Of a DNA stretch of 16,591 nucleotides, positions 5,206 to 14,952 are shown piece after piece; position 1 is the stretch's first letter, and each line of letters starts with the position of its first letter. Both the position numbers and the translations under genes were made by a program. The DNA comes from a virus (lineage: Duplodnaviria; Heunggongvirae; Uroviricota; Caudoviricetes). Location: the IMG/VR virus record IMGVR_UViG_2718217897_000003; one strand, given 5' to 3'. The notes under the pieces are model-generated. The model did not search any database. It was not told the DNA's origin and saw only the letters and a list, made by a program, of their open reading frames with translations.

Positions 5206-5477
5206 GTATTCGTATTGAAATTGGCGAACGTTATGTCGTTACCAGTGACAGCTTTCAGTTTATTCTCCACGAGAAAAAGAGAGCGGAAAGCGGTAAAAAC
5301 GCCGGTCAGGAATGGCTGGCGGTGGTTGGTTATTACCCGAAATTAAGCCAGCTCGTTTCCGGCCTGATGCATCACGATATTCTTACCGGAAGCGCAAAGT
5401 CTTTTGCTGATTTAAACGCGCAGGTTGAGCAACTCAGCAAGCGTTGTTCAGAGGCTTTTGGCTCATATGGCCGTTAA
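5202..5477 (+). CDS. Hypothetical early protein, P2 orf83 position (91 aa)
   Basis: ATGA overlap with the orf82 stop; its 3' end overlaps the A start by 11 nt. Confidence 0.7.
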   Translation: MSIRIEIGERYVVTSDSFQFILHEKKRAESGKNAGQEWLAVVGYYPKLSQLVSGLMHHDILTGSAKSFADLNAQVEQLSKRCSEAFGSYGR

Positions 5478-7749
5478 AGCCTCCGGGCGTTTTGTCCCTC
5501 CGTCAGCATTTGCCGCAGGCACCGGTAAGACGTTTACCGGTGCTTATGCATGGAACGCGCCACGCGAGGCCGTCGGGCGCGAAAGACCCCTTACACGTGA
5601 CGAGATGCGTCAGGTGCAAGGTGTTTTATCCACGATTAACCGCCTGCCTTACTTTTTGCGCTCGCTGTTTACTTCACACTATGACTACATCCGGCGCAAT
5701 AAAAGCCCGGTGCACGGGTTTTATTTCCTCACATCCACTTTTCAGCGTCGTTTATGGCCGCGCATTGAGCGTGTGAATCAGCGCCATGAAATGAACACCG
5801 ACGCGTCGTTGCTGTTTCTGGCAGAGCGTGACCACTATGCGCGCCTGCCGGGAATGAATGACAAGGAGCTGAAAAAGTTTGCCGCCCGTATCTCATCGCA
5901 GCTTTTCATGATGTATGAGGAACTCAGCGATGCCTGGGTGGATGCACATGGCGAAAAAGAATCGCTGTTTACGGATGAGGCGCAGGCTCACCTCTATGGT
6001 CATGTTGCTGGCGCTGCACGTGCTTTCAATATTTCCCCGCTTTACTGGAAAAAATACCGTAAAGGACAGATGACCACGAGGCAGGCATATTCTGCCATTG
6101 CCCGTCTGTTTAACGATGAGTGGTGGACTCATCAGCTCAAAGGCCAGCGTATGCGCTGGCATGAGGCGTTACTGATTGCTGTCGGGGAGGTCAATAAAGA
6201 CCGTTCTCCTTATGCCAGTAAACATGCCATTCGTGATGTGCGTGCACGCCGCCAGGCAAATCTGGAATTTCTTAAATCGTGTGATCTCGAAAACAGGGAA
6301 ACCGGCGAGCGCATCGACCTTATCAGTAAGGTGATGGGCAGTATTTCTAATCCTGAAATTCGCCGGATGGAGCTGATGAACACCATTGCCGGTATTGAGC
6401 GTTACGCCGCAGCAGAGGGTGATGTGGGGATGTTTATCACGCTGACCGCGCCGTCAAAGTATCACCCGACACGTCAGGTTGGAAAAGGCGAAAGTAAAAC
6501 CGTCCAGCTAAATCACGGCTGGAACGATGAGGCATTTAATCCAAAGGATGCGCAGCGTTATCTCTGCCGTATCTGGAGCCTGATGCGCACGGCATTCAAG
6601 GATAATGATTTACAGGTCTACGGTTTGCGTGTCGTCGAGCCACATCACGACGGAACGCCGCACTGGCATATGATGCTTTTTTGTAATCCGCGCCAGCGTA
6701 ACCAGATTATCGAAATCATGCGTCGCTATGCGCTCAAAGAGGATGGCGACGAAAGAGGAGCCGCGCGAAACCGTTTTCAGGCAAAACACCTTAATCGGGG
6801 CGGTGCTGCGGGGTATATCGCGAAATACATCTCAAAAAACATCGACGGCTATGCACTGGATGGTCAGCTCGATAACGATACCGGCAGACCTCTGAAAGAT
6901 ACTGCCGCGGCTGTTACTGCATGGGCGTCAACGTGGCGCATCCCGCAATTTAAAACGGTTGGTCTGCCGACAATGGGGGCTTACCGTGAACTACGCAAAT
7001 TGCCTCGCGGCGTCAGCATTGCTGATGAGTTTGACGAACGCGTCGAGGCTGCACGCGCTGCCGCAGACAGTGGCGATTTTGCGTTGTATATCAGTGCGCA
7101 GGGTGGGGCAAATGTTCCGCGCGATTGCCAGACTGTCAGAGTCGCCCGTAGCCCGTCGGATGAAGTTAACGAGTACGAGGAAGAAGTCGAGAGAGTGGTC
7201 GGCATTTACGCGCCGCATCTCGGCGCGCGTCATATTCATATCACCAGAACGACGGACTGGCGCATTGTGCCGAAAGTTCCGGTCGTGGAGCCTTTGACTT
7301 TAAAAAGCGGCATCGCCGCGCCTCGGAGTCCTGTCAATAACTGTGGAAAGCTCACCGGTGGTGATACTTCGTTATCGGCTCCCACACCGACTGAGCATGC
7401 TGCAGCGGTGTTAAATTTTATAGATGAAGGGATTCTAAGTTGGACCGAGCCAGGCATTATGAAGGTACTTAGAGACTTATTGAGTAATGAACTGAAATGC
7501 AGTAATCGTTCACAGCAGAGCTTTACTCCTTTCAATGGTCGAAGCTACTTTCCTGCCCCATCCGCCCGGTTGACAAGGCAGGAGAGAAAGACTATCCCGA
7601 AAATTAAGGTTCTTCTTGCACAAAGTGACATTCAGGCTAGTTATTGGGAGCTTGAAGCTCTCGCTCGCGGAGCTGTTTTGGATTTTGGGCATAAGCGTTT
7701 TAAATTTGATACCGATATCGACTTTTTTGACAGACAGCGTGAGTGGTAG
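5467..7749 (+). CDS. A: Replication initiation protein A (rolling-circle initiator, 760 aa)
   Basis: Protein starts MAVKASGRFVPPSAFAAGTGKTFTGAYAWNAPREAVGRERPLTRDEMRQ at the ATG at 5467 and carries an HxH-like motif (TPHWHMMLF) and a tyrosine-rich GYIAKYISKN region typical of gpA-family initiators. The ORF-track start at 5425 is an extension. The last 110 codons or so are AT-richer than the rest. Confidence 0.92.
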   Translation: MAVKASGRFVPPSAFAAGTGKTFTGAYAWNAPREAVGRERPLTRDEMRQVQGVLSTINRLPYFLRSLFTSHYDYIRRNKSPVHGFYFLTSTFQRRLWPRIERVNQRHEMNTDASLLFLAERDHYARLPGMNDKELKKFAARISSQLFMMYEELSDAWVDAHGEKESLFTDEAQAHLYGHVAGAARAFNISPLYWKKYRKGQMTTRQAYSAIARLFNDEWWTHQLKGQRMRWHEALLIAVGEVNKDRSPYASKHAIRDVRARRQANLEFLKSCDLENRETGERIDLISKVMGSISNPEIRRMELMNTIAGIERYAAAEGDVGMFITLTAPSKYHPTRQVGKGESKTVQLNHGWNDEAFNPKDAQRYLCRIWSLMRTAFKDNDLQVYGLRVVEPHHDGTPHWHMMLFCNPRQRNQIIEIMRRYALKEDGDERGAARNRFQAKHLNRGGAAGYIAKYISKNIDGYALDGQLDNDTGRPLKDTAAAVTAWASTWRIPQFKTVGLPTMGAYRELRKLPRGVSIADEFDERVEAARAAADSGDFALYISAQGGANVPRDCQTVRVARSPSDEVNEYEEEVERVVGIYAPHLGARHIHITRTTDWRIVPKVPVVEPLTLKSGIAAPRSPVNNCGKLTGGDTSLSAPTPTEHAAAVLNFIDEGILSWTEPGIMKVLRDLLSNELKCSNRSQQSFTPFNGRSYFPAPSARLTRQERKTIPKIKVLLAQSDIQASYWELEALARGAVLDFGHKRFKFDTDIDFFDRQREW

Positions 7750-7784
7750 TTGAAAAAACGGTTGAACGGGGTAACAATATGTTA

Positions 7785-7837: not shown

Positions 7838-9061
7838 ATGAGCATGGTTGAATGGATAAGCCACGAGAAAAAAGATAGCCTGATACTATTTGTACATGGA
7901 TTAAATGGTGGTTTGGAAACATGGAACTTTAATAAAGAAATTTCATTTCCAAAACTATTAGCAGAAGATGAAGATATTAGCAACGTATTTGATATTGCAT
8001 GTTTCAATTATTTTACTAAATTCACACAAACGTATGCTAAAACGTCAGGATTCTTGGCTCGTATTTTCTTTAAGAAAAATAAGTTAGAGAGAAATTTACC
8101 AACTGATGAAATAGCTGAGTTATTGTATACTGAGATTAGAGTAACACTAAGTGATTACTCTCGAATTATAATAATCGCCCATAGTATGGGGGGGTTAATA
8201 TCAAAAAATCTAATTCTAAAAAAAGTTGAGCATGAGGAACAATCTAATATAATTGGATTCATTTCGTTAGCAGTCCCTCACTTTGGTGCTAAATTAGCGA
8301 ATATAACTTCAATGGTATCTTCAAATGCTCAGTTAGTAGATCTTGGATTGTTAAGTGAAGCGACTGATACATTGAATAGGCGCTGGATAAATTGTAGCAA
8401 AAAACTTCCTATCACTAGATATGTTTATGGATCTCATGACACTATAGTCGATAAAAAAAGCGCATTACCGATGGATAGTGAACGACATAACTCAATTGCA
8501 GTTAATGAAGGGCATAGCTCAATTTGCAAGCCCGAAAATAGCTCGTCTACAGTGTTTGTTGCGGTAAAGCAATTTATTCAGCAGATAAATTTAGAAGCAC
8601 CCAAGAAGATTTGCGTTGAGCGTTTTTCTGATGATAAACAATATGATAATGAGTATTTCGTCTTAAAAATGATTGTCGCAGATATACATCAGGATATCGC
8701 TCTGCATGCAAAGGAATATTATTATAATGCTGAGCTTGCGAGAAATATTTTTACGAGTGATTACGATAGAAAACAACTTGGTCATTTGTATTCTAAAATA
8801 AGGGAGATTTACCAGGAAGAGTATGAGCAATACATTGCAAATTCAATTTCCCCAGATAAATTTATTGCTGCTGTTCATAGACGAATAACCCAGGAGGATA
8901 AGTCGTCGTTAGATTCTCTTATAAAAAGTTTGGAAACGATACATAAGAAAGGAATGTTGCATCAACTGGCTAACAAAAATGACAGGGATATTGTCTGGTC
9001 ATCTGAAACCAGCGTAGAAACTTTGGAGCAATTACGGCGAGGTAATCATGAAGAAAAATAA
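7838..9061 (+). CDS. Cargo protein 1: lipase-like alpha/beta serine hydrolase with C-terminal helical domain (407 aa), candidate defense effector
   Basis: AT-rich ORF. Oxyanion-hole-like HGLNGG (res 20-25), nucleophile elbow AHSMGG (Ser116, the pentapeptide of Bacillus lipase A), candidate acid Asp201 (YGSHDTIVD) and His226 (NEGHSSI), in the canonical order. The C-terminal 150 residues or so are helical and K/E-rich. The stop overlaps the next gene by 14 nt. Confidence 0.75.
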   Translation: MSMVEWISHEKKDSLILFVHGLNGGLETWNFNKEISFPKLLAEDEDISNVFDIACFNYFTKFTQTYAKTSGFLARIFFKKNKLERNLPTDEIAELLYTEIRVTLSDYSRIIIIAHSMGGLISKNLILKKVEHEEQSNIIGFISLAVPHFGAKLANITSMVSSNAQLVDLGLLSEATDTLNRRWINCSKKLPITRYVYGSHDTIVDKKSALPMDSERHNSIAVNEGHSSICKPENSSSTVFVAVKQFIQQINLEAPKKICVERFSDDKQYDNEYFVLKMIVADIHQDIALHAKEYYYNAELARNIFTSDYDRKQLGHLYSKIREIYQEEYEQYIANSISPDKFIAAVHRRITQEDKSSLDSLIKSLETIHKKGMLHQLANKNDRDIVWSSETSVETLEQLRRGNHEEK

Positions 9062-9560
9062 CTTGCCGTATATACCTCTTGATGAAGAGTATAGTTTGAA
9101 TTTTGCTATGCTTGCCATTGCTATATCTATATTATCTCATAGCAAAAAAGGAGTGTTGTCATTAGATATTAATAAAATACAAATTTTTATGTATCTGATA
9201 AAAAATCCATCAAAAATTGATTGTGCTCTTACAGTTTCGGGGAAAAAGCCTGCTTGTGTCGAGTCCCAGTTAACTTATACAATAAAGAGTTTTTCATCAA
9301 ATGTAGATATCTTATTCGACAATTCCAAAGTGAAATATCTTATAAAAATTATGTCATTGCGGGGATTGCTCTCAGCTGAGAAAAAAAATAATGAGAGTGT
9401 TAAATTATTTTTATCTGAAAAAGGTAAGGAATTTGCTAGCTCATTGACTGATGGATATTTTAAAGAAATAAAACGACTAGCCGAAGCATTGTTACCGCTA
9501 CAAGCATTGCCTACCTCTAAGTTAAACTCTGTTATAAACAAAGTCTTCAAGGAGAAATGA
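9048..9560 (+). CDS. Cargo protein 2: small 170-aa protein of unknown function, possible adaptor or kleisin-like middle component
   Basis: ATG at 9048 lies inside the 3' end of gene 1, and ATGA overlaps gene 3 at 9557-9560, indicating translational coupling in one operon. AT-rich; no motif recognised by eye. Confidence 0.7.
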   Translation: MKKNNLPYIPLDEEYSLNFAMLAIAISILSHSKKGVLSLDINKIQIFMYLIKNPSKIDCALTVSGKKPACVESQLTYTIKSFSSNVDILFDNSKVKYLIKIMSLRGLLSAEKKNNESVKLFLSEKGKEFASSLTDGYFKEIKRLAEALLPLQALPTSKLNSVINKVFKEK

Positions 9561-11527
9561 TGAAATCATATCTCAATATCAATAGTTTGATTCTTGTTGG
9601 CGTTCGTAAAAACTACGTCACTACTTTTTATAAAGGTCTCAATGTTATCTACGGAGACTCTGACACAGGTAAGTCAAGTATTCTGGAGTTTATTAATTAT
9701 CTTTTAGGTGCTAGTTCTATAGATTTAGCAGATGAAATAAAAACATCAGTAAACTATGCTGCTCTTGAAGTAGTGATCAATGATACTGTATTCACAATCG
9801 TAAGAGATATCTATGATCATAAAAAATCAATAGAAGTTTATCGTTGTAAGTTTGATGATTTACATAAACACTTTCCGAAAAAATACGCCCCTAATTATAG
9901 CCCCTTATCAAATGTTGATGGCGTTTTTTCGGAGTTTTTACTTGATAGTCTTAATTTTCCAAAAATTGAAATTAAGGTGTCTCCTTCTAAAGCACATTCA
10001 CAGATGCGCAGGTTAAGCTTTAGAAATATATATAAATTTGTTTATGTAAGTCAGGATGATATTGGTAGTAAATCATTCTTACGATTGGAGGATTGGTCCC
10101 GTTACGCATTTACGAAAGAAGTTTTTAAATACATGTTCAATGTGTTGGATGAAAGCATCGCCAGACTCCAAGGTGAAATATCTGCAAAAAGTAGTTTAGT
10201 AACGGAACTAAATAAGAAGTATCAGATAATATCTGAATTTCTTCGCGATACAGACTATGAAACAATTGAATCAATTGATGATGAGATTAATAGGATAGAT
10301 CTTATTTTAGAAGAACTTGTTGCAGGTTTGTCTGCTCTCGATAAAAATATGAAAGCGGATTCCATGCAGTATACAGAATTGAAAGATGCCCACAATTTTA
10401 TTTCGCTTAAATACAAGGAGTGCATATTAAATATTAGCACGCTTGAGGATAAGATTGATAAATATTCGCGGTTAAAAAATGACTATGATAATGATATTGA
10501 AAAACTCAAAGCGATTAAAACAGCAAATTCTCGCATTGGTGTATTGGATAAGGAAGTATTTTCCTGTCCGATCTGTGATAGCCACATTAAAATAGATGAT
10601 TCCGATTTTCCATTTGAAATTTCATCAGAAAAAGATCTTAATGAAGAGTTGAATTCACTTAGTCGACGTAGACGAAATATTAATGACATGATCTCAGAAA
10701 TGTCATTTAAATTAAAAAAAGAATCTGGTTATAAAAAAGAATTAGATGAACAACTTGACGAGTTGAGAGAGTTAATTGACGAAGAAAGCCAGTCAATGAT
10801 TACACCATTCTTGACTCAGAGAGATTTTTATATTAAAGAGATATCAAAAAACGAGAAGGTTAGGGAGCAGTTAGTAAAAGATTTGAAGGTTAGAAACCAG
10901 CAAGAGGAACTGCTTGAAAAGCATCAGGTACTGATAAAAGATATTGAAACATTAACTGAACGCTTGGATGCGTTAAAGAAAAACGCACCTAGTATGGAAG
11001 GCATTTTACAAGGTTTAGGTGATAGATTTAGTCAGTATTTGAAGGGTATTAATATCAAAAACAGAACGGGGATAAAAATCTCTGAAAGATATTACACCCC
11101 TGTTATAAGAGGAAAGGAATATTTTAAAATAACGTCCGGAGGTTTGAGAACTATTTCTTCTATTGGGTATCTTTTGTCTATTCTTGATTATGCAATAGAC
11201 CATAATGTTAACCATCCTTTACTTTTGATATTTGATACGGTTGGTAAATATTTAGGGAAACAGACCAAGGAAAAATACTCAAAAGAAACTCTTGCAGTCG
11301 AGGATGACCTTGAGGGGATGTCAGACCCGATGAAGTATCAAAATATTTATGAGCAACTATTGAATACAGTTCAAAAAGCAGAAAGAAAAAATGTTCCGTG
11401 CCAGATTATATTAGTTGATAATGATTTGCCTAATTCGTTTTCTACTGGTGAACTTTCGAATATTATCGCTCATTATAGCTCGGTTGGTGAGGATGGTTTG
11501 CCTTTAGGTTTAATTGATGACCTTTAA
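9557..11527 (+). CDS. Cargo protein 3: SMC/Rad50/SbcC-like ABC ATPase with coiled coil and CxxC hook (656 aa)
   Basis: N-terminal Walker A GDSDTGKSS (K39), Q-loop-like VSQDD (Q166), a charged heptad-rich segment of about 350 residues with a single CPIC (C337/C340) near its middle, signature-like TSGG (526-529) and Walker B-like LLLIFD (555-560). Confidence 0.8.
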   Translation: MMKSYLNINSLILVGVRKNYVTTFYKGLNVIYGDSDTGKSSILEFINYLLGASSIDLADEIKTSVNYAALEVVINDTVFTIVRDIYDHKKSIEVYRCKFDDLHKHFPKKYAPNYSPLSNVDGVFSEFLLDSLNFPKIEIKVSPSKAHSQMRRLSFRNIYKFVYVSQDDIGSKSFLRLEDWSRYAFTKEVFKYMFNVLDESIARLQGEISAKSSLVTELNKKYQIISEFLRDTDYETIESIDDEINRIDLILEELVAGLSALDKNMKADSMQYTELKDAHNFISLKYKECILNISTLEDKIDKYSRLKNDYDNDIEKLKAIKTANSRIGVLDKEVFSCPICDSHIKIDDSDFPFEISSEKDLNEELNSLSRRRRNINDMISEMSFKLKKESGYKKELDEQLDELRELIDEESQSMITPFLTQRDFYIKEISKNEKVREQLVKDLKVRNQQEELLEKHQVLIKDIETLTERLDALKKNAPSMEGILQGLGDRFSQYLKGINIKNRTGIKISERYYTPVIRGKEYFKITSGGLRTISSIGYLLSILDYAIDHNVNHPLLLIFDTVGKYLGKQTKEKYSKETLAVEDDLEGMSDPMKYQNIYEQLLNTVQKAERKNVPCQIILVDNDLPNSFSTGELSNIIAHYSSVGEDGLPLGLIDDL

Positions 11528-11842: not shown

Positions 11843-12814
11843 TCAGCCGTTGTCAGTGTCCAGTGAGTAGTTTTTAAAGCGGATGACCTCCTGACCGAGC
11901 CAGCCGTTTATCTCACGGATCCTGTCCTGTAACGGGATAAGCTCATTGCGGACAAAGACCTTTGCCACTTTCTCAATATCACCCAGCGACCCGACGTTCT
12001 CCGGCTTGCCGCCCATCAACTGAAAGGGGATGCGGTGCGCGTCCAGCAGGTCTGCGGCACTGGCTTTTTTGATATTAAAAAAATCGTCCTTCGTCGCCAC
12101 TTCACTGAGCGGGATAATTTTAATGCCGTCGGCTTTTCCCTGTGGGGCATAGAGAAACAGGTTTTTAAAGTTGTTGCGGCCTTTCGACTTCACCATGTTT
12201 TCGCGAAGCATTTCGATATCGTTGCGATCCTGCACGGCATCAGTGACGTACATGATGTATCCGGCATGTGCGCCGTTTTCGTAATACTTGCGGCGGAACA
12301 GCGTGGCCGACTCATTCAGCCAGGCAGAGTTAAGGGCGCTGAGATATTCCGGCAGGCCGTACAGCTCCTGATTAATATCGGGCTCCAGCAGGTGAAACAC
12401 GGAACCGGGCGCGAAGGCTGTCGGTTCGTTGAAGGACGGCACCCACCAGTAAACATCCTCCTCCACGCCACGGCGGGTATATTTTGCCGGTGAGGTTTCC
12501 AGTCTGATGACCTTACCGGTGGTGCTGTAACGCTTTTCCAGAAACGCATTACCGAACACCAGAAAATCCAGCACAAAGCGGCTGAAATCCTGCTGGGAAA
12601 GCCACGGGTGCGGGATAAACGTTGAAGCCAGAATATTACGTTTGACGTAAATCGGTGAGCTGTGATGCACGGCAGCACGCAGACTTTTTGCCAGACCGGT
12701 AAAGCTGACCGGTGGCTCATACCATCTGCCGTTACTGATGCATTCGACGTAATCCAGAATGTCACGGCGGTCGAGTACCGGCACTGGCTCACCATGCTGA
12801 AAAATCAGCTTCAT
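11843..12814 (-). CDS. Q: Portal protein Q (323 aa as encoded here; 5' end abuts a deletion junction, possibly N-terminally truncated)
   Basis: Minus-strand ORF with host-like GC content in the expected place and orientation next to cos. From memory P2 Q is about 344 aa, so about 20 codons may be missing. Sequence directly upstream of its ATG is lysB-derived rather than gene P. Confidence 0.8.
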   Translation of the reverse strand: MKLIFQHGEPVPVLDRRDILDYVECISNGRWYEPPVSFTGLAKSLRAAVHHSSPIYVKRNILASTFIPHPWLSQQDFSRFVLDFLVFGNAFLEKRYSTTGKVIRLETSPAKYTRRGVEEDVYWWVPSFNEPTAFAPGSVFHLLEPDINQELYGLPEYLSALNSAWLNESATLFRRKYYENGAHAGYIMYVTDAVQDRNDIEMLRENMVKSKGRNNFKNLFLYAPQGKADGIKIIPLSEVATKDDFFNIKKASAADLLDAHRIPFQLMGGKPENVGSLGDIEKVAKVFVRNELIPLQDRIREINGWLGQEVIRFKNYSLDTDNG

Positions 12815-14166: not shown

Positions 14167-14952
14167 TTATGAGTGATTTTTATTTGATGCTTTGTATTCT
14201 ACAACCTTCTTATTGGCGTAAAGGAATTTTGTATATGACAGGAATATAACCAGACCTGAAATGAAATAGATGAGGGATATTATTAATAATGCTTTTTTTT
14301 GGCTGTTATTATCTTTAATTTCCTGACTTAACCATTCCGAGTCCTCCTCGTTTAGCTGTAAGAGCTTATTGCAGGCGATCTCAGGAAGTGTGTCTTTTAT
14401 AAATATGTTTCGTAGCCTCTTGCAATCGGCAAGGCTATAAGTTTTATTGAATTCAACTGTTTTATTGTTGAAGGATAAAAGAACTTTGTCACTATAAACA
14501 TAGTACATCATATTTTTATATGGTATGCCTATGGCATCTCTTACTATAGCGGATTGTTTGTTGTGTATATAACATGCGAAGAGAATATAAATAATGCTGG
14601 ACAGAATTACAATTATTGTTTTAATTATGTGTGGTGGTTTTGTTATGTCACCCCAGAAGCGAGTAAGAAAAAAATACGATGTTTTTAGTTTTCCATCAAT
14701 CAGCCCCTGCTGTATCATTCTCACATCTTCGATGCCTGATACATTGATTCCGTTAATTATTTTAAATAGTTGAATGTCGCGCCATTTTTTGTCGAGCATT
14801 TTTAACTTTCTGTCTGAATACTCAAAATTGAAATGATGTGCAATAAACCTCATAAGATTACTTTTACCAAAGGTAATAAATGTTAATGCTATTAATAAAA
14901 ATAGATACAAAGAGATAAACCACCACGCATTAGTCACATTATCACTGAACAT
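14167..14952 (-). CDS. AT-rich cargo gene: 261-aa integral membrane protein (about 3 predicted TM helices), unknown function, in the S-V slot (P2 orf30 position)
   Basis: ATG complement at 14950-14952 with GAGGAG 8 nt upstream on the minus strand. Hydrophobic segments WWFISLYLFLLIALTFITF, IIVILSSIIYILFACYI and ALLIISLIYFISGLVIFLSY. Opposite strand to the flanking tail genes. Confidence 0.8.
   Translation of the reverse strand: MFSDNVTNAWWFISLYLFLLIALTFITFGKSNLMRFIAHHFNFEYSDRKLKMLDKKWRDIQLFKIINGINVSGIEDVRMIQQGLIDGKLKTSYFFLTRFWGDITKPPHIIKTIIVILSSIIYILFACYIHNKQSAIVRDAIGIPYKNMMYYVYSDKVLLSFNNKTVEFNKTYSLADCKRLRNIFIKDTLPEIACNKLLQLNEEDSEWLSQEIKDNNSQKKALLIISLIYFISGLVIFLSYTKFLYANKKVVEYKASNKNHS

Follow-up and report, generated by a model that had tools for sequence, protein, structure and literature searches.

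Organization and genomic context of the lmuACB operon

The window analysed here, a stretch of 16,591 nucleotides from the IMG/VR virus record IMGVR_UViG_2718217897_000003, contains three overlapping genes in the order lmuA-lmuC-lmuB. The first gene, lmuA (positions 7838–9061, plus strand), was identified by the ORF finder as an ATG-initiated open reading frame whose translation is 407 amino acids long. Its product matches the PADLOC LmuA model PDLC03851 over residues 3–406 (E-value 1.3e-108) and corresponds to the RefSeq entry WP_000063128.1, named 'ABC-three component system protein'. This Lamassu/ABC-3C effector combines an N-terminal alpha/beta-hydrolase (lipase-like) domain (residues about 1–237; positions 7838–8548, plus strand) with CTD8, a helical coupling domain (residues 265–389; positions 8630–9004, plus strand; Pfam PF20284). 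The second gene, lmuC (positions 9048–9560, plus strand), encodes a 170-aa protein of the middle component MC4 type (PADLOC LmuC, 2.6e-52; Pfam MC4 PF20290, 4.5e-27), and it begins within the end of lmuA, with an overlap of 14 nt. The third gene, lmuB (positions 9557–11527, plus strand; RefSeq start at 9560), encodes an SMC/Rad50-like ABC ATPase of 656 amino acids recognized by PADLOC as LmuB; its overlap with lmuC has the form ATGA. The RefSeq names of the lmuC and lmuB products are "ABC-three component system middle component 4" and "AAA family ATPase", respectively.

The operon forms a 33% GC island between flanks of 52–55% GC. On the left it is preceded by a gene for a P2-type, gpA-like replication endonuclease (positions 5425–7749, plus strand; 52% GC), which is annotated in RefSeq and assigned to phrog_91 ('nicking at origin of replication'). 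On the right there is the remnant of a phage portal gene (positions 11843–12814, minus strand; phrog_68, portal), a RefSeq pseudogene described as 'incomplete; missing N-terminus'. The site between the replication endonuclease and the portal gene corresponds to the position that the old/tin cargo genes occupy on the P2 map. The window shows 100% identity to E. coli B strains such as ATCC 11303, in which the locus belongs to a defective P2-like prophage adjoining yegR/yegS. This prophage is devoid of the capsid and packaging block, and its portal and morphogenesis genes are annotated in RefSeq as pseudogenes.

The locus thus possesses an LmuB ATPase, a middle component LmuC, an LmuA in which an enzyme is fused to a CTD, and linkage of the trio in mobile contexts, which are the features of type II Lamassu (ABC-3C) systems. 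We conclude that the open reading frame is very probably the lmuA gene of a short three-gene (type II) Lamassu/ABC-3C system of the lipase subtype CTD8/MC4, and that a defective P2-like prophage carries this system in its old/tin cargo slot.

The scan for promoters around the operon returned fewer promoter-like sites than shuffled sequences did, and the scan for terminators revealed no convincing plus-strand terminator after lmuB. One weak promoter-like site lies at positions 7750–7778, immediately upstream of lmuA.

The hydrolase domain of LmuA

Four alpha/beta-hydrolase families of Pfam exceed their curated cut-offs on residues 10–208 of LmuA, namely DUF676 (score 37.2 vs cut-off 20.3), PGAP1 (30.8 vs 24.3), Abhydrolase_1 (28.2 vs 25.8) and LCAT (22.7 vs 21). 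The original prediction had proposed a lipase-type catalytic triad in this domain, and each of its motifs lies in the translation exactly at the residues claimed. The oxyanion-hole HG motif HGLNGG, located after strand beta3, covers residues 20–25 (positions 7895–7912, plus strand), and the nucleophile elbow AHSMGG covers residues 114–119 (positions 8177–8194, plus strand), with the Ser116 codon at 8183–8185. The catalytic acid Asp201, within the sequence GSHD, is encoded at positions 8438–8440 (plus strand), and the catalytic base His226, within EGHS, at positions 8513–8515 (plus strand).

A search of a 5.8-billion-protein collection yielded 372 homologues of LmuA (E <= 1e-5). We examined residue conservation in an alignment of 47 homologues that share 43–91% identity, with a mean column identity of 60%. 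Residues H20, G21, S116, D201 and H226 are invariant in all 47 sequences, as are H115, S116, M117, G118 and G119 of the elbow, and the two remaining glycines of the HGLNGG motif, G24 and G25, are invariant in the same alignment. It also revealed a second invariant motif downstream of the elbow, S143-L-A-V-P-H148-x-G150. Across LmuA's own family, the catalytic histidine occupies positions 222–227.

The AlphaFold2 (AF2) model of the N-terminal domain has pLDDT values of 80–96 in most ten-residue blocks and of 77–96 in the blocks that contain the catalytic motifs. Ser116 is modelled in the turn between strand 109–115 and helix 117–132, in the manner of a nucleophile elbow, Asp201 follows strand 192–198, His226 follows strand 219–222 (pLDDT about 91), and the HG motif follows strand 14–19. 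The modelled topology and the alignment together thus show the order Ser-Asp-His and the placement of HG after beta3 that characterize alpha/beta hydrolases. Two insertions, residues 63–87 and 151–171, are modelled with low confidence; they fall in the usual place of lipase lids or caps and may play such a role in LmuA.

Profile-based comparison placed LmuA among lipid-acting enzymes. When the LmuA family profile was compared with PDB sequences, the matches were RavL (5e-6), BlEst2, LPLA2/LCAT and the GPI inositol-deacylase Bst1; Asp201 was aligned with the equivalent aspartate of RavL (7x2p), and AHSMGG was aligned with the nucleophile element of lipases of known structure. Lipases of the Bacillus type have this A-H-S-M-G-G elbow. 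The pairwise search of PDB sequences with the N-terminal domain returned a single marginal lipase match, BlEst2 (E 0.1). In the hhalign comparison of the family profile with B. subtilis LipA, 21 columns were aligned around the nucleophile only, and the Asp and His could not be mapped onto this solved lipase.

The nearest sequence families are therefore DUF676, PGAP1 (Bst1), LCAT-LPLA2 and the Legionella protein RavL, which have in common with LmuA the nucleophile elbow and a downstream motif of the 'LAVPHxG' type. These relatives are either lipid-remodelling enzymes of eukaryotes or an effector secreted by a bacterium and, unlike LmuA, all of them lack CTD8 and any coupling with an ABC ATPase. 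Structural comparison gave a broader picture: the top neighbours of the LmuA model include RutD, the thioesterases BorB, YbtT and TesA, peroxidase-like hydrolases and carboxylesterases, all at the same Z as lipases, so that esterases, thioesterases and C-C hydrolases are represented besides lipases. We conclude that the N-terminal domain of LmuA is an alpha/beta hydrolase of the DUF676/PGAP1/LCAT lipase-like group in which the Ser116-Asp201-His226 triad is intact, with the geometry of the triad predicted from the topology of the model and from superposition scores.

The C-terminal domain CTD8

The C-terminal part of LmuA matches Pfam family PF20284, CTD8, almost from end to end (9.2e-36; model positions 1–126 of 127). 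A second PADLOC model of LmuA, PDLC03852, matches residues 290–381 only (1.9e-6), as expected of a coupling module that is common to LmuA subfamilies. The domain is all-helical in both the full-length and the CTD-only models. The charged, helical character that had been predicted for the C-terminal ~170 residues was borne out, as DSSP assigns helices to this region and the residues D, E, K and R make up 31% of it vs 23% of the N-terminal domain. All 120 of the LmuA homologues listed, among the 372 detected, retain CTD8, and lipase-like families were found in nearly all of these 120.

The CTD-only AF2 model, built with 110 sequences, reached a pLDDT of 53. A Foldseek search with this low-confidence model found no fold match in the PDB (best E 2.6), and the pairwise search of PDB sequences with the CTD gave four chance-level matches (best E 0.25), none of them to an LmuA chain. 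Using the CTD alone, we also searched the 5.8-billion-protein database for CTD8 fused to other effectors and recovered only nine short fragments of the same family.

Alpha/beta hydrolases are listed among the effector domains of LmuA proteins (PMC10586767; Millman et al. preprint), and the class of effector C-terminal domains that includes CTD8 has been proposed to be a docking module in a review (PMC10586767). Predicted lipase-domain LmuAs fall in both CTD8 and CTD9, for which AlphaFold3 (AF3) gives dimers and cyclic oligomers (10.1101/2025.03.14.643221). The suggestion that the C-terminal domain attaches the effector to the ATPase complex is therefore upheld at the level of the domain class, and for this particular CTD8 it is the family assignment that speaks for docking. 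Together with the literature, this assignment suggests that CTD8 of LmuA may dock on the coiled coils of LmuB and on LmuC.

The partner proteins LmuC and LmuB

LmuB matches the PADLOC model PDLC03862 over residues 2–656 (1.2e-233), as well as 10 further LmuB models, and the middle part of the protein shows weak similarity to the coiled coils of SMC_N, ASRP, SMC, Rad50 and SbcC. Conservation of its motifs was judged from three homologues with 40–51% identity. The Walker A motif GDSDTGKSS, which includes Lys39 (residues 33–41; positions 9653–9679, plus strand), and the ABC signature-like SGGLRT (residues 527–532; positions 11135–11152, plus strand) are invariant in this set. The Walker B-like motif LLLIFDT (residues 555–561; positions 11219–11239, plus strand) is conserved in these homologues as well and is deviant, with D560 followed by T and not E. 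A CxxC zinc-hook motif, CPIC, is located centrally within the coiled coils (residues 337–340; positions 10565–10576, plus strand), and its residues C337, P338 and C340 are invariant. Both peculiarities have counterparts in published systems: the Walker B motif of LmuB is described as deviant or diversified (PMC12663957; 10.1101/2025.03.14.643221), and short Lamassus of the Ec-Lipase type are described with a Zn hook (PMC12663957).

In agreement with the proposal that the hydrolase has an SMC-like partner, PADLOC, Pfam and the above motifs identify the neighbouring genes as LmuC/MC4 and the SMC/Rad50-like LmuB. The pairwise search of PDB sequences with LmuB and LmuC gave no match; the LmuB, LmuC and CTD chains solved to date in the PDB thus differ from those encoded here in having no pairwise sequence similarity to them.

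Relation to known systems and proposed mechanism

A classification of ABC-3C systems was reportedly given by Krishnan, Burroughs and Aravind in 2020. The architecture and gene order of the locus match exactly those of ABC-3C systems with a CTD8 effector and MC4 (PF20284/PF20290); no difference was detected, and the locus is a member of this group. A functional analogy can be drawn with the CBASS effector CapV, a patatin-like phospholipase whose output in abortive infection is lipid hydrolysis and not nuclease activity. CapV has an unrelated fold with the patatin Ser-Asp dyad and is activated by cyclic nucleotides, in contrast to the alpha/beta triad and the SMC-like sensor of LmuA.

One of the most similar characterized systems is the Lamassu Ec-Lipase of E. 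coli, which protects against Lambda-vir (Haudiquet et al., PNAS 2025; PMC12663957). As in the operon described here, Ec-Lipase is a short three-gene E. coli Lamassu that comprises a lipase-type LmuA, LmuC and an LmuB with a Zn hook. Each of the substitutions LmuB K42A and LmuA H215A abolishes its defence, the toxicity observed upon overexpression is removed by H215A only, and activity is lost in seven of the nine mutants whose interface residues were extrapolated from the structure of the Cap4 system (PMC12663957). The corresponding residues are H215 and K42 in Ec-Lipase vs H226 and K39 here, and the CTD possibly belongs to another family; as the residue numbering differs, Ec-Lipase is a relative and not the same protein.

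The systems DdmABC/Vc-Cap4 and Salmonella LmuACB (9NY5, 9NYG, 9NXX and others) follow the same operon logic of effector, middle component and SMC-like ATPase. They resemble the present system in having an N-terminal enzyme joined to a helical CTD, and the model put forward for them includes sequestration of a monomer followed by its release and oligomerization. They differ in that a Cap4 nuclease, CTD7 and MC3 take the place of the lipase and the CTD8/MC4 pair, and the V. cholerae (Vc) LmuB is without a Zn hook, whereas LmuB here has the CPIC motif. Cryo-EM of the Cap4-type Lamassu revealed a single LmuA monomer whose CTD contacts LmuC and the distal part of the LmuB dimer's coiled coils; the complex binds DNA ends and is enriched at the phage replication origin, and the active state is an LmuA tetramer mediated by the CTD (PMC12663957; 10.1101/2025.03.14.643221). 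Protection by abortive infection that depends on the ATPase LmuB, on LmuC and on the catalytic activity of LmuA has been shown for relatives of the system (Millman 2022 preprint; Ec-Lipase, PMC12663957).

By analogy with these published Lamassu systems, the following scenario may apply to LmuA. At rest, a single LmuA would be held, together with LmuC, on the coiled coils of the LmuB dimer near the hook; its CTD would make the contact, and this sequestration would keep it monomeric and inactive. LmuB would sense the ends of phage or plasmid DNA, or replication intermediates. LmuA would then be released and self-associate through its CTD, which would switch on the hydrolase, and the active enzyme would kill or arrest the infected cell by abortive infection. 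Since the CTD8 model is poor and LmuB and LmuC have no PDB match, this architecture of sequestration and release is carried over from systems with other CTD and MC families.

The original prediction of an abortive mechanism through lipid or ester hydrolysis agrees with the loss of both defence and toxicity in the H215A mutant of the related E. coli lipase Lamassu. Judging from the sequence relatives LCAT/LPLA2, PGAP1, DUF676 and RavL, the substrate of LmuA would most likely be a phospholipid of the membrane or some other acyl ester. The further suggestion of a hydrolase output distinct from DNA cleavage is not new as an idea, as Lamassu lipase effectors are already present in the literature.

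Alternative interpretations

An account that keeps the same Lamassu identity and makes the hydrolase cleave a non-lipid ester, a thioester or an amide, so that a metabolic lesion and not membrane damage would follow, deserves some weight, although we regard it as clearly the less probable one; candidate targets include acyl-carrier or acyl-CoA thioesters, a peptide and a small-molecule ester. Such a substrate is suggested by the presence of RutD, thioesterases, peroxidase-like hydrolases and carboxylesterases among the structural neighbours at the same Z as lipases, by the outcome of our literature search, which found no substrate for any Lamassu lipase, and by the text of PMC12663957, where the words 'phospholipid' and 'membrane' have no occurrences. 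At the sequence level, however, every family match is to a lipid-acting group (the putative serine esterases of DUF676, PGAP1, LCAT/LPLA2 and the 'putative lipase' RavL), and the nucleophile elbow of LmuA is the one found in Bacillus-type lipases, which argues against a non-lipid substrate. A bolder elaboration, in which the lipase branch of Lamassu works differently from the nuclease branch, would have CTD8 drive a cyclic, non-tetrameric LmuA oligomer that acts on a specific target rather than on the bulk membrane and causes growth arrest by a mechanism new to phage defence, and would attribute phage and plasmid differences among B-lineage laboratory strains in part to this system, where the E. 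coli B copy is intact in ATCC 11303 and lmuC is frameshifted in REL606. The specific target might be one distinct pool of phospholipids, a lipoprotein or an ester other than a lipid, and we consider the whole combination rather unlikely.

Two further interpretations question whether the genes work, or work together, at this locus. The operon might be a decaying or silenced relic, in which intact genes are inactive in their host owing to H-NS or to the degradation of the prophage. The prophage has indeed lost its capsid/packaging block and carries portal and morphogenesis pseudogenes around the 33% GC island, so the native copy may be silent, and the 2-bp insertion that splits lmuC in REL606 implies that inactivation is tolerated. 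A 2026 preprint (10.64898/2026.09.05.749240) reports that AT-rich immunity loci of E. coli are silenced by H-NS. Against a relic, all three open reading frames in the window are intact and translationally coupled, several B-lineage strains share the locus at 100% identity, many O157:H7 genomes have it at about 97.4% with intact annotation, and the catalytic residues are invariant among homologues; we therefore hold this interpretation to be improbable, if a little less so than the cyclic oligomer. The idea that LmuA is a catalytically dead scaffold, or else a prophage lipase that acts alone and has nothing to do with the ATPase encoded nearby, can draw on the low confidence of the CTD model and is otherwise a general possibility. 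The triad and the oxyanion-hole residues are invariant in all 47 aligned homologues, and a pseudoenzyme was rejected for the invariance of the triad. CTD8 is itself defined by its association with ABC-3C operons, the three genes overlap and travel together in unrelated genomes, and the retention of CTD8 in 120 of the 120 homologues listed (of 372), nearly all with lipase-like families, is at odds with both variants; a stand-alone lipase was rejected for the conserved CTD8/MC4/LmuB linkage. This last idea is accordingly extremely improbable, and we favour a lipase-type Lamassu effector acting with LmuC and LmuB.

Distribution and significance of the system

Of the 5426 complete E. coli genomes, 96 contain the system, and it was chromosomal in every case. 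Twelve copies are at least 99% identical to the one described here; they belong to ten B-lineage records (ATCC 11303, B, AS19, REL606 and six drug-resistant B derivatives), to H1827/12 and to a strain named C. The remaining 84 copies, about 97.4% identical, are mostly from O157:H7. Outside E. coli, the same trio of a lipase-CTD8 protein, MC4 and an ABC protein of ~660 aa occurs in P. aeruginosa, where its neighbours are TraG and genes for conjugation, and on the chromosome of a Methylomonas. The maintenance of the trio in such unrelated genomes suggests that it moves as a unit.

LmuA, the pairing of a lipase with CTD8, the MC4 and LmuB partners and a non-nuclease Lamassu output are already known from Pfam, PADLOC, RefSeq and the literature, and a related E. 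coli lipase Lamassu has been validated genetically, so the value of the locus as a discovery is small. With 372 detected homologues and good conservation, the LmuA family is a reasonable model for the question of the substrate and activation of Lamassu lipases, given that the literature search returned neither a substrate nor an activation structure for any of them. The system is native to laboratory strains of the E. coli B lineage and to many O157:H7 genomes, and the natural lmuC frameshift of REL606 provides ready-made isogenic material. The tblastn search of INPHARED phage genomes with LmuA gave no match; the system is represented in prophage-derived PHROGs.

Distribution of the Lamassu operon in E. 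coli and a disrupted lmuC in REL606

All 12 E. coli records carrying the Lamassu system at 99% identity or higher are accounted for by ten members of the B lineage, strain H1827/12 and a strain named C. The ten B-lineage records comprise ATCC 11303, B, AS19, REL606 and six drug-resistant B derivatives; BL21 is not among them, and BL21-type genomes therefore appear to lack the system. A copy with 97.4% identity is present in a large set of O157:H7 genomes, e.g., TW14359 and SS17.

Relative to the window, lmuC of the REL606 reference genome differs by two inserted base pairs (TG) and a single substitution (window 9190-9200; positions 1650-1665 of L006, the REL606 sequence). These changes produce a stop, and lmuC is annotated there as two CDS, whereas the system is intact in ATCC 11303 and B. 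The LmuA and LmuB proteins of REL606 are identical to those of the window and share the same WP accessions. In those Lamassu systems that have been tested, lmuC is indispensable; REL606, the ancestor of the long-term evolution experiment, may therefore possess an inactive system.

Conserved motifs in LmuA and LmuB

A second invariant motif of LmuA, S-L-A-V-P-H-x-G, occupies residues 143-150 (window 8264-8287), just after the strand formed by residues 138-144. The 'PHxG'-like segments of BlEst2, RavL and Bst1/PGAP1 align with this motif, and LPLA2 has a related 'P-x-x-G' segment. The motif may be structural or contribute to the substrate pocket. In LmuB, residues 555-561 (LLLIFDT; window 11219-11239) form a deviant Walker B motif, where a threonine follows the aspartate at the position expected for the catalytic glutamate. 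This deviation is kept in homologues and fits published remarks on LmuB proteins as poor ATPases. A further acidic motif, ILVDND (residues 617-623), is also invariant.

Representation in phage databases and prophage context

Over their full length, the products of lmuA, lmuC and lmuB (window 7838-11527) fall into PHROGs families 1846, 1894 and 1637, all labelled 'unknown function'; Pfam and PADLOC classify the same genes as Lamassu/ABC-3C. A tblastn search of deposited phage genomes in INPHARED found no LmuA homologue.

The prophage itself is defective (window 11843-12814 and about 12590-12760): RefSeq marks its portal gene and a virion-morphogenesis gene as partial pseudogenes, and the capsid and terminase block expected between them is missing. 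A 261-aa ORF on the minus strand (14167-14952), with a truncated virion-morphogenesis gene on one side and baseplate gene V on the other, lies in a second low-GC patch, with about 35% GC compared to 55% in the late-gene region. The ORF may be another cargo (moron) slot in this P2-like prophage. It had no match in PADLOC and only a sub-threshold match to DUF6535 in Pfam, and it matches phrog_2407 (unknown function) over its full length.
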